In this document: piece after piece, positions 55,934 to 57,292 of the stretch
Layout: each line of letters starts with the position of its first letter
Position numbering within the stretch: the stretch's first letter is position 1
Source of the DNA: Escherichia phage RB16
Sequence record: NC_014467.1
DNA: 64,000 nt
Strand: one strand, 5' to 3'
Program-made: the position numbers and the translations under genes
Notes under the pieces: model-generated
Database searches by the model: none
Told to the model about the DNA's origin: nothing
The model's input: only the letters and a program-made list of their open reading frames with translations

Positions 55934-56206
55934 ATGCAAATCACTAAAGAACTCGAAGGCAAAGTAATCGTTCTGGTAAATGAAGACCGTTTGGCACAAC
56001 TGGGTAACGGTGGTGAAAAACTGCCAGCGGACGCACTCGAAAGCCTTTCTAAAATGCGCGTGATGCGTGTTACTGACGGTTGGGTTACTTGTCTGCCTCT
56101 GAACGACGAAGACAAAGCCGTATACGATGCACAAGCGGATTCATGGGATATCGAAGTACCTCTGGTAAACATCGAAGTTGAAGAGTGCTACGAAATCGAA
56201 AAATAA
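55934..56206 (+). CDS. hypothetical protein
   Basis: 90 aa; RBS AAGGAAC; first gene downstream of PeSL cassette. Confidence 0.45.
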   Translation: MQITKELEGKVIVLVNEDRLAQLGNGGEKLPADALESLSKMRVMRVTDGWVTCLPLNDEDKAVYDAQADSWDIEVPLVNIEVEECYEIEK

Positions 56207-56208
56207 TG

Positions 56209-56238
56209 CTTGCTTCCTGGGTAATGTAGTGGTACATT
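56209..56238 (+). promoter_or_regulatory. sigma70-like promoter: -35 TTGCTT (aATGCTTGCtt), 18-bp spacer, -10 TACATT, within 10-bp perfect hairpin GGGTAATGTA...TACATTACCC
   Basis: Followed by 5'UTR ATATCGAAACGAAAGGAG shared with the PeSL copies. Confidence 0.4.
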
Positions 56239-56267
56239 ACCCATATCGAAACGAAAGGAGAAACATC

Positions 56268-56447
56268 ATGAAAATTATGCACACTGCAAATCAACTTCAA
56301 AACGGCAACTACGCTATCCACGATGCTATCGGTGCGCTGGTTGGGGTTTATCTTCATGGTATCAAACTCCTTGAAGTAAGTGGGAATACCTTTTATGGTG
56401 TTGAAAACATCGAAGCAGCGATGGAAATTATCGGTGACCTGAAATGA
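56268..56447 (+). CDS. hypothetical small protein
   Basis: 59 aa from MKIMHTANQ; RBS AAGGAG. Confidence 0.4.
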   Translation: MKIMHTANQLQNGNYAIHDAIGALVGVYLHGIKLLEVSGNTFYGVENIEAAMEIIGDLK

Positions 56448-56635
56448 GTAAGAAACTCGAAATATTCGAAACTATCAGCGAAGACCCTAATCATCGCTGG
56501 TGCTGTGCGAAAACTGGTTTTGATGCTGCATGGGGTGATACTCCAGAACAGGCGCGTAAAAACTGGGAACACCAACAATTGTTTTTTGCCTGTCGGGTTC
56601 CTACCAATTATGAGGGGAGTCAATTGTTAGCATGA
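56444..56635 (+). CDS. hypothetical protein
   Basis: 63 aa; 4-nt coupling. Confidence 0.4.
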   Translation: MSKKLEIFETISEDPNHRWCCAKTGFDAAWGDTPEQARKNWEHQQLFFACRVPTNYEGSQLLA

Positions 56636-56928
56636 AAAATAAAGAATATGACCCAATAGAAGTTAAAGAGCGGTTATCGGTAGCAAGAAGATTCCTTGAA
56701 TCTATCGACCCTGATAAACTTGGAAAATGCCCTGATACGATTTGCCTTAATTGTGGGCGATCCGTAATGGTTGGAAAGTGCTGTGATAATCAGAATATCG
56801 TTATCATGGACAGGAAAGAAGTTTCACCGGAAGTGTGGGATCGGATTCAAGAGATCATCAAAAACCCACCTGAACCGACGAAACGTTTACGCGAACTTAT
56901 GAGCAGGAAACCACGTTATGAAAAATGA
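56632..56928 (+). CDS. hypothetical protein with Cys-rich putative zinc-binding motif
   Basis: 98 aa; CPDTICLNCG...GKCCD. Confidence 0.4.
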   Translation: MKNKEYDPIEVKERLSVARRFLESIDPDKLGKCPDTICLNCGRSVMVGKCCDNQNIVIMDRKEVSPEVWDRIQEIIKNPPEPTKRLRELMSRKPRYEK

Positions 56929-57292
56929 ACCAAGTAAGACTGTGCGCCTTATCCGTTGGGAAGGCAACGAACTCCGTTATGAAGACGGCGACCGCGAATT
57001 CGTCCATGAAATGCTTGCGCATAATCTGGGATTCAAAAACGCCGCACTGGTGATGATGCAACAAACCAGCGATGAAGACACCTGGCAATGCGTCATTCTC
57101 GATCTGGACAAAAACAAGGAATACACCGAAGATGAACTGTTTGCGCTCACAGAGAACGCTACAGCGCGTCAGAAGTGCTTCATGATCGATATGCCTCGCG
57201 AGAACTACGAGAATATCAAGAAAGCCCGTAAACAGAACAAGAACAACGTGTTCGACCTGTTCATGGGCTATCATGAAGAAACTACGGCCTAA
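56918..57292 (+). CDS. hypothetical protein
   Basis: 124 aa ORF. Confidence 0.4.
   Translation: MKNEPSKTVRLIRWEGNELRYEDGDREFVHEMLAHNLGFKNAALVMMQQTSDEDTWQCVILDLDKNKEYTEDELFALTENATARQKCFMIDMPRENYENIKKARKQNKNNVFDLFMGYHEETTA

Follow-up and report, generated by a model that had tools for sequence, protein, structure and literature searches.

What do the small genes that separate the DNA ligase gene from the baseplate hub genes do in RB43-like phages, and how did they come to be there? We addressed this question in Escherichia phage RB16, using a stretch of 64,000 nucleotides (nt) of its genome (NC_014467.1; here called the window, to whose coordinates all positions refer). Five plus-strand open reading frames (ORFs) of 90, 59, 63, 98, and 124 amino acids (aa), designated O1 to O5, fill positions 55934 to 57292 according to the ORF listing. 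A previous interpretation made from the letters alone (the sequence-only reading) had described five unknown ORFs of these sizes between the ligase and hub genes and had them launched from promoters of the PeSL type, in which a promoter is joined to a terminator stem-loop. All five were found at that place and on the plus strand, and Pfam and PHROG confirmed the flanking genes as gp30 and gp27. The searches gave no functional lead for O1, O2, O3, or O5; O4 now has a specific one in its DUF1778-like tail. On balance, we favor the explanation that the block lies in a hyperplastic part of the genome of this RB43-like T4-type phage, that its five members are genuine accessory genes and probably expressed early, and that O4 is likely an antitoxin decoy.

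Coding status of the five ORFs

A megablast search with positions 55800 to 57400 matched 174 phage records, the best being Enterobacter phage EcL22g and Cronobacter phage Banach (both 99.6%; Pseudotevenvirus, RB43 group, T4 type), and the matches reached RB43 itself (81%) and Klebsiella slopekviruses such as KP15. The RB43 counterparts, RB43ORF096w to RB43ORF100w, are placed between gene 30 (ligase) and gene 27, and counterparts of O1 to O5 are annotated as “hypothetical” in about 175 Pseudotevenvirus and Slopekvirus genomes. Conservation of the reading frames, a check proposed in the sequence-only reading, was borne out: frames, lengths, and start-stop overlaps are kept across these genomes of two genera, and each ORF is a full-length match to a PHROG family of unknown function (E values of 1e-43 to 1e-75; Table 1).

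Ratios of nonsynonymous to synonymous substitution rates (dN/dS; Nei-Gojobori method, window genes against those of RB43, SemperBestia, KP15, JC221, and GuL6) ranged overall from 0.03 to 0.43 for the five ORFs. These values indicate that O1 to O5 truly encode proteins and are less constrained than the core genes. Two pairs fell outside this range. The ratio of 1.16 for O4 between the window and RB43 arises because the window O4 is a chimera (see below), and that of 2.6 for O2 between the window and SemperBestia comes from five substitutions only.

The ribosome-binding sites are strong. RB43, KP15, and EC-W1 all have O2 annotated from the ATG at 56268, which follows a strong AAAGGAG site; the extension of O2 to a TTG at 56178, given in the ORF listing, was set aside in its favor. 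O2/O3 and O3/O4 overlap as ATGA, and O4/O5 overlap by 11 nt; such start-stop overlaps indicate that O2 to O5 are probably translated as a coupled unit. Two minus-strand ORFs, 55624 to 56172 (182 aa) and 56897 to 57274 (125 aa), were rejected as genes, being antisense to frames under purifying selection; the first also crosses the terminator.

A DUF1778-like tail in O4

O4 is modular, with a variable N-terminal helix, a Cys knuckle, and a tail resembling the toxin-neutralizing C terminus of DUF1778 antitoxins. Its single Pfam match is TacA1 (formerly DUF1778), with an E value of 7.8e-4 and residues 63 to 92 aligned to profile positions 48 to 77 of 80. This match was reproduced by 17 of 20 O4 homologues (best E value, 7e-5), the other three having frameshifted tails, and the four best PDB matches obtained by sequence or profile, AtaR (6GTQ, 6AJN, and 6AJM) and KacA (5ZGN), all cover the same segment. 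Six DUF1778 genes were taken for comparison, all of them plasmid-borne (in Cronobacter, Enterobacter, Klebsiella, Salmonella, and E. coli) and each followed by a GNAT gene. The O4 family aligned to these plasmid antitoxins in hhalign with probabilities of 83 to 85% and E values of 8.4e-6 and 6.7e-6 over 32 to 33 columns. Since the best of 400 column-shuffled controls reached 18.5, against 34.5 for the real alignment, and none came close, the match depends on residue order rather than on composition.

In the KacA-KacT complex (Qian et al. 2019, PMC6698736), the segment betaB-alphaC-71PPAP74-alphaD of the antitoxin wraps the toxin, blocks its acetyl-coenzyme A (acetyl-CoA) site, and prevents its dimerization, and the R77A variant of KacA loses neutralization. 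As in the DUF1778/TacA-AtaR-KacA antitoxins (6GTQ, 6AJM, and 5ZGN; PMC6698736), the C-terminal ~33 residues of O4 (VSxExW..I..II.NPPxPT.RLR.LM) align with alphaC-PPxP-alphaD, and O4 keeps the hydrophobic contact residues of KacA and the Arg equivalent to R77 (W61, V64, A67, I68, P72, R77, and L78 of KacA align with W69, I72, I75, I76, P80, R85, and L86 of O4). The AlphaFold2 (AF2) model of O4 (pLDDT, 73.5; pTM, 0.30) has a helix at residues 8 to 24, a small hairpin around the Cys knuckle, a helix at 66 to 77, PPEP at 79 to 82, and a helix at 84 to 90, thereby reproducing both helices and the PPxP linker of the KacA segment. The low pTM would match the expectation for a tail that folds on binding, and it proves nothing in itself.

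O4 differs from the DUF1778 antitoxins in two respects. Its N-terminal part holds a helix and the Cys knuckle in place of the ribbon-helix-helix (RHH) DNA-binding and dimerization domain, which is absent: Pfam and hhalign align the tail only, and AF2 gives one helix and the knuckle. Moreover, the O4 gene lies within the predicted early operon of a lytic phage, with no adjacent GNAT toxin gene; searches of the window and of all Pseudotevenvirus and Slopekvirus records turned up no GNAT toxin homologue, the few phage matches being phage-plasmids and prophages. DUF1778-GNAT pairs are present on plasmids of Cronobacter, Enterobacter, and Klebsiella hosts. One Slopekvirus homologue of O4 is already given as DUF1778 by GenBank and, with no experiments, by a table in Bleriot et al. 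2023. The likeliest and most economical reading makes O4 an orphan antitoxin decoy that has no RHH domain, by analogy with antitoxin mimics already known from phages.

The analogy is with AdfA, AdfB, AdfN, and AdfM, which act against DarT (as cited in PMC13309987), and with T4 Dmd, which acts against RnlA and LsoA (as cited in PMC10100988). What they have in common with O4 is an antitoxin-like protein in a lytic phage, lacking a toxin partner, with early expression (predicted for O4) and a presumed role in neutralizing a host toxin-antitoxin (TA) toxin. Unlike theirs, the presumed targets of O4 are GNAT tRNA acetyltransferases, for which the papers found report neither a phage countermeasure nor a demonstrated antiphage role.

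The knuckle is made up of C38-x2-C41-x8-C50-C51, which lies in the invariant stretch PDTICLNCGRxVxVGKCCD. The Cys-rich motif CPDTICLNCG...CCD singled out in the sequence-only reading was confirmed, except that one of its five Cys, C33, the first of CPDTIC, varies; the other four are the same in all 20 homologues, giving the pattern C-x2-C-x8-CC. The two closely spaced Cys pairs are what would be expected of a zinc knuckle, but the CC pair is atypical and no Pfam zinc-finger family matched. In Pantoea phage Phynn, knuckle (PHYNN_192) and tail (PHYNN_191) are separate adjacent genes, the tail matching the O4 family (hhalign E value, 1e-8), and Yersinia phage JC221 has the knuckle at the end of a protein of 157 aa (JC221_046) that has no tail; the knuckle Cys are kept in both of these tail-free proteins.

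Cassette exchange between relatives

Mosaicism was read from pairwise nucleotide profiles and per-gene identities, and this comparison shows the block to be a hotspot of recombination that evolves by cassette exchange, even between phage genera. KP15 belongs to a different genus, and its core proteins are diverged (80, 76, and 62% amino acid identity for ligase, gp27, and gp28, respectively). From 55920 to about 56760, that is, through O1, O2, O3, and the first third of O4, the window is nevertheless 99 to 100% identical to KP15 in nucleotides, with dS values of 0.017, 0, and 0.058 for O1, O2, and O3, against 1.4 to 1.7 for ligase and gp27. Conversely, SemperBestia, of the same species as RB16, has flanks of 95 to 100% identity and alleles of only 67% for O1 (dS, 0.74) and 72% for O4 (dS, 1.79). 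Two deeply diverged O1 alleles hence occur within one phage species, and the swap falls between the two predicted promoters P1 and P2 that precede O1 and O2. The chimeric O4 of the window joins a KP15-type 5' part to a 3' part (56760 to 56960) that is 98 to 100% RB43 type, with the crossover in the conserved knuckle-coding stretch.

Whole genes are exchanged as well. In leE and GuL6, an unrelated 73- to 80-aa ORF replaces O2 and O3, and similarity stops directly after the leader that follows P2. Between ligase and the O1 homologue, Miller, GuL6, and KP15 each have one more ORF, bracketed by two promoter-hairpin-leader units; Pfam gave no match for these cargo ORFs (KP15_81, Miller_98, and GuL6_095). 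O2 and O3 are gained or lost together in the relatives examined, except in JC221, which has only an O3-like gene. Alleles are swapped, genes replaced, and ORFs inserted by recombination at two kinds of site, the repeated promoter-leader sequences and the knuckle-coding stretch of O4.

As a side observation, the replacement ORFs leE_100 and GuL6_097, which form an alternative cassette behind P2, have a motif in common (KADFLALIAGM/KAEFLALVANM...SASNFREE).

These features resemble the PeSL of phages RB49 and phi1 (Arbiol et al. 2010, PMC2839356; Comeau et al. 2014, PMC4122927), which likewise combine a strong sigma-70-like promoter with a terminator stem-loop, are repeated in the genome 5' of ORFans in plastic regions, are linked to insertion, deletion, and replacement of small genes, and have crossovers between the −10 box and the ATG. 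The RB16 units differ in having the −35 box inside the hairpin loop, a −35 consensus of TTGC(A/T) rather than TTGACA, and a common 12-nt leader. RB43-type phages lay outside both PeSL analyses. The locus offers a clean example of PeSL-type exchange in RB43-like phages, with a near-identical 840-bp segment common to two genera, and a good test bed for accessory-gene trading between phages. The cluster overall is typical of the clade-restricted early ORFan blocks in plastic regions of T4-type phages, already “hypothetical” in many genomes and with promoters predicted in 2006; what is added here is the history of cross-genus cassette exchange and a specific, testable proposal for O4.

Promoters and predicted expression

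A predicted early promoter, P1, fits the consensus of early promoters in RB43 (G at −33, C or G at −36), and its −35 box lies in the loop of the terminator hairpin of the ligase transcript (Table 1). This cassette is kept across relatives and is duplicated wherever an extra ORF has been inserted. The window holds a second copy at 10736 to 10649 on the minus strand (91% identical over 88 nt). The leader ATCGAAACGAAA, which follows the predicted transcription start at both P1 and P2, has three exact copies in the window; at 10663 and, with one mismatch, at 9948, both on the minus strand, it likewise comes after a promoter of this type, which makes four leader sites in total.

Several properties expected of a PeSL were compared between the two sites. 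P1 matches the sigma-70-type early promoter consensus and is joined to a terminator stem-loop, which P2 is not; repeated copies 5' of ORFans in plastic regions were found, as were breakpoints of gene gain, loss, or replacement between relatives. Because its hairpin has no U-tract and is not kept in RB43, the P2 site is classed here as PeSL-like rather than as a full PeSL. The description of both as PeSL-type promoters thus holds for the first cassette, with its promoter, overlapping terminator, genomic repeat, and link to gene gain and loss, and not for the second, whose hairpin lacks the U-tract and is unconserved. The promoter placed at 56209 to 56238 was located accurately: TTGCTT-17-TACATT spans 56210 to 56238.

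Early expression, which the sequence-only reading had proposed together with an early-to-late module boundary, is probable for O1 to O5 on the promoter predictions. Nolan et al. 2006 (PMC1524935, Additional file 3) predicted RB43 early promoters Pe:57694 and Pe:58043 directly 5' of RB43ORF096w and RB43ORF097w, at positions that correspond exactly to P1 and P2, and a TransTerm terminator at 57704 to 57725 labeled “30-->RB43ORF096w”. The only late promoter predicted nearby in RB43, Pl:60263, lies in the gap between gp27 and gp28, past gp27, and the boundary is therefore placed directly after O5. Rfam has no family at this locus, and the KP15/KP27 genome paper gives no virion proteome match for these genes.

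The cassettes at 55843 to 55930 (+) and 10649 to 10736 (−) form inverted repeats 45 kb apart, and a related promoter-leader unit at 9949 to 9994 (−) lies ~700 bp from the 10.7-kb cassette; such inverted repeats could be substrates for recombination or inversion.

Table 1. Positions and properties of the block, its regulatory elements, its flanks, and exchanged ORFs of relatives (window coordinates unless a retrieved locus is named)
Feature	Coordinates	Strand	Make-up	Match or evidence	PHROG family (E value)	dN/dS
gp30, ATP-dependent DNA ligase (upstream flank)	54319-55842	+		Pfam DNA_ligase_A_M PF01068, E 3.6e-15; gp30 in RB43	114 (1e-137)	about 0.1
PeSL cassette	55843-55933	+	intrinsic terminator overlapping sigma-70-type early promoter, then conserved leader and ribosome-binding site	repeat copy; conservation in relatives		
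Terminator hairpin of ligase transcript	55859-55888	+	13-bp stem, then UUUUGUUAUAUU	terminator scan; RNA fold dG −21.1 kcal/mol, z −5.4, 0/200 shuffles as stable		
Early promoter P1 (predicted)	55868-55896	+	−35 TTGCAT (in hairpin loop), 17 nt, −10 TATATT	consensus match		
Leader common to P1 and P2	55903-55914	+	ATCGAAACGAAA	exact copies also at 56245 (+) and 10663 (−)		
O1	55934-56206	+	90 aa	RB43ORF096w	7207 (2e-51)	0.20-0.43
Early promoter P2 (predicted)	56210-56238	+	TTGCTT, 17 nt, TACATT	kept in relatives; corresponds to RB43 Pe:58043		
Hairpin overlapping −10 of P2	56218-56243	+	no U-tract	dG −15.6 kcal/mol, z −4.4; absent in RB43 and Miller		
O2	56268-56447	+	59 aa	RB43ORF097w	14120 (4e-43)	about 0.3, few changes
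O3	56444-56635	+	63 aa	RB43ORF098w	17295 (3e-48)	0.03-0.23
O4	56632-56928	+	98 aa	RB43ORF099w	7517 (3e-57)	0.11-0.30 (window-RB43 pair left out)
O4 Cys knuckle	56743-56784	+	C38-x2-C41-x8-C50-C51	four Cys invariant in 20 homologues		
O4 tail (AtaR/KacA/TacA-like)	56812-56916	+	residues 61-95	Pfam, PDB, hhalign		
O5	56918-57292	+	124 aa	RB43ORF100w	7253 (1e-75)	0.13-0.21
gp27, baseplate hub subunit (downstream flank, convergent late gene)	57289-58392	−		Pfam PF09097, E 4e-24	1135 (3e-130)	0.02-0.10
leE_100, replacement ORF in O2/O3 slot behind P2	2697-2939 of retrieved leE locus					
GuL6_097, replacement ORF in O2/O3 slot behind P2	2480-2701 of retrieved GuL6 locus					
KP15_81, extra cargo ORF	1642-2211 of retrieved locus		189 aa			
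Miller_98, extra cargo ORF	1637-1891 of retrieved locus		~85 aa			
GuL6_095, extra cargo ORF	1805-2068 of retrieved locus		~85 aa			

O1, O2, O3, and O5

Single-sequence and profile searches with O1 to O3 against Pfam, NCBIfam, PADLOC, and PDB returned no significant match, and matches to leucine-rich-repeat, SH3, and nucleoporin proteins were dismissed as chance (E > 0.005). None of the other four varies as much between alleles as O1, which is very acidic (pI 4.2, net charge −11) and whose family occurs in this phage clade only. O3 is rich in Trp and Cys and has distant homologues in JC221_045 and PHYNN_190.

O5, which is also acidic, has only seven real relatives in an exhaustive HMMER search of 1.84 billion representatives; a match to a eukaryotic nucleoporin-like protein with RanBP2-type zinc fingers was spurious. 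Structure prediction and fold search, another check proposed in the sequence-only reading, succeeded in part: AF2 gave a confident alpha/beta model of O5 (pLDDT, 83; pTM, 0.74), for which the fold search returned no structural relative, and the search with O4 was uninformative because of the pTM of its model. Weak hints that O5 might be a Rossmannoid nucleotide sensor of the CARF/NARF type were rejected, as no Rossmann-like fold match to CARF/NARF structures was obtained. We consider O1, O2, O3, and O5 most likely to be host-takeover or counter-defense factors.

Proposed mechanism and alternative explanations

In the mechanism that we propose, host sigma-70 RNA polymerase would start at P1, inside the composite promoter-terminator cassette that would also end the ligase transcript, and at P2, just 5' of O2, so that both transcripts would carry the leader. 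O4 would combine two parts, a small zinc knuckle and a helix-PPxP-helix tail that descends from the C terminus with which DUF1778 (TacA/AtaR/KacA) antitoxins bind their toxins. Early in infection, host shutoff would stop the resupply of the labile host antitoxin; the O4 tail would then wrap a tRNA-acetylating GNAT toxin whose TA module belongs to the host, a plasmid, or a prophage and block its acetyl-CoA site and dimerization as KacA does, and translation would keep running. In its most specific form, O4 as a minimal RHH-less decoy with a zinc-knuckle-stabilized, DUF1778-derived tail neutralizing KacT/AtaT/TacT-type GNAT toxins encoded on enterobacterial chromosomes, plasmids, or prophages, this proposal is a tentative one. 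If it is true, GNAT-RHH modules, whose role is still debated, would be abortive-infection defenses against T4-type phages, and the rapid swapping of the O4 N-terminal module would reflect an arms race. Binding of GNAT toxins by the O4 tail would make it the first phage countermeasure against this very common TA family and would point to an antiphage role for GNAT-RHH modules.

A number of observations weigh against the favored explanation as a whole or against its O4 component. The roles suggested for O1, O2, O3, and O5 are without support, and a literature search for transcript, proteome, or phenotype results on O1 to O5, covering transcriptomes of these genera and RB43 ORF names, found none. 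The TacA1 match of O4 scores 19.8 bits, below the gathering cutoff of 21, and spans only ~30 residues; the Phynn tail alone (PHYNN_191) gave no match to DUF1778; the monomer model shows no strand at the residues aligned to KacA betaB; and the O4 model is of low global confidence, with the uninformative fold search noted above. The host range common to the phages and the TA plasmids carries little weight, given how strongly Enterobacteriaceae dominate the databases. No published demonstration of GNAT-RHH TA modules defending against phages was found, and we therefore infer, rather than know, the biological target of O4.

As an alternative, O4 could be a small zinc-finger regulator that binds nucleic acid or another protein and, for example, times the early-to-late switch, with the likeness of its tail being convergence on a generic amphipathic helix-PPxP-helix. 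Such a regulator is favored by the four-Cys knuckle, which is conserved more than any other part of O4 and occurs tail-free in JC221_046 and PHYNN_192, and by the subthreshold tail match and the Phynn result. Convergence sits poorly with the ordered DUF1778 match, far above its shuffled maximum, with the conservation in O4 of the very residues that KacA uses against KacT, and with TacA1 as the sole significant Pfam match and AtaR and KacA as the top PDB matches; nor was a known DNA-binding domain detected in O4. We regard the regulator as rather unlikely. A role of the cluster, and of O5 especially, in baseplate hub assembly is improbable. Such a role would account for O5 abutting gp27, convergently and with overlapping stop codons, in every relative examined, even Pantoea phage Phynn and Yersinia phage JC221, but O5 lies on the strand opposite to gp27, within a predicted early operon that no late promoter precedes, its divergence outpaces that of gp27 (53% versus 76% identity to KP15), and it has no similarity to known hub proteins or chaperones; the fixed adjacency may simply mark the end of the plastic region at a conserved core gene.

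The remaining alternatives concern the promoters and the reading frames themselves. The KP15 record annotates the sites corresponding to P1 and P2 as “putative middle promoter (MEME)”, and P2 contains TGCTT, which would make them MotA-dependent middle promoters. RB43-type phages lack both a MotA orthologue and a middle-promoter consensus, so the KP15 label is unlikely to be right; in addition, the 18 nt from TGCTTGC to TACATT exceed the 11 to 13 nt of TGCTTtA-N(11-13)-TAtaAT and put the element too far away for a Mot box, TTGC(A/T)-17-TA(T/C)ATT fits a sigma-70 promoter, and both sites were scored as early by Nolan et al. (PMC1524935). Middle promoters are accordingly a very improbable reading. 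We give almost no credence to some or all of the ORFs being nonfunctional remnants or chance ORFs: they are short, limited to one phage clade, and free of known domains, and O2 offers few substitutions for judging selection, but their frames, lengths, and overlaps persist in ~175 genomes of two genera, dN/dS is well below 1 wherever divergence suffices, the ribosome-binding sites are strong, and the predicted fold of O5 is confident.

Neighboring genes

An HNH homing endonuclease gene with an AP2 DNA-binding domain (53790 to 54341, plus strand; PHROG 99, E value of 1e-51) lies between gene 30.2 and the ligase gene, whose start it overlaps by 23 nt. It is present at this place in Miller and SemperBestia and missing in Banach, leE, and EC-W1, where 30.2 directly abuts the ligase gene, and so looks like a mobile insertion.

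On the other side of the block, no terminator separates O5 from gp27 at their overlapping stop codons (57289 to 57292), and the sole terminator-like site on the plus strand inside gp27 is a weak 5-bp stem at 57589 to 57602. With no terminator there, early transcripts may continue into the late gene gp27 as antisense RNA. Nowhere in the 64 kb is the T4 late-promoter core TATAAATA present, against 2.4 occurrences expected by chance. The divergent gp27/gp28 gap (58393 to 58454), the same gap as that of the predicted RB43 Pl:60263, carries the near-palindrome CTATTTACTAAATAGTAAATA. Beyond gp27 and gp28, a gp29-like ORF of 583 aa (59030 to 60781, plus strand) occupies the position of T4 gene 29; most relatives list it only as “hypothetical” or “similar to YTA6”, and leE names it “baseplate hub”.

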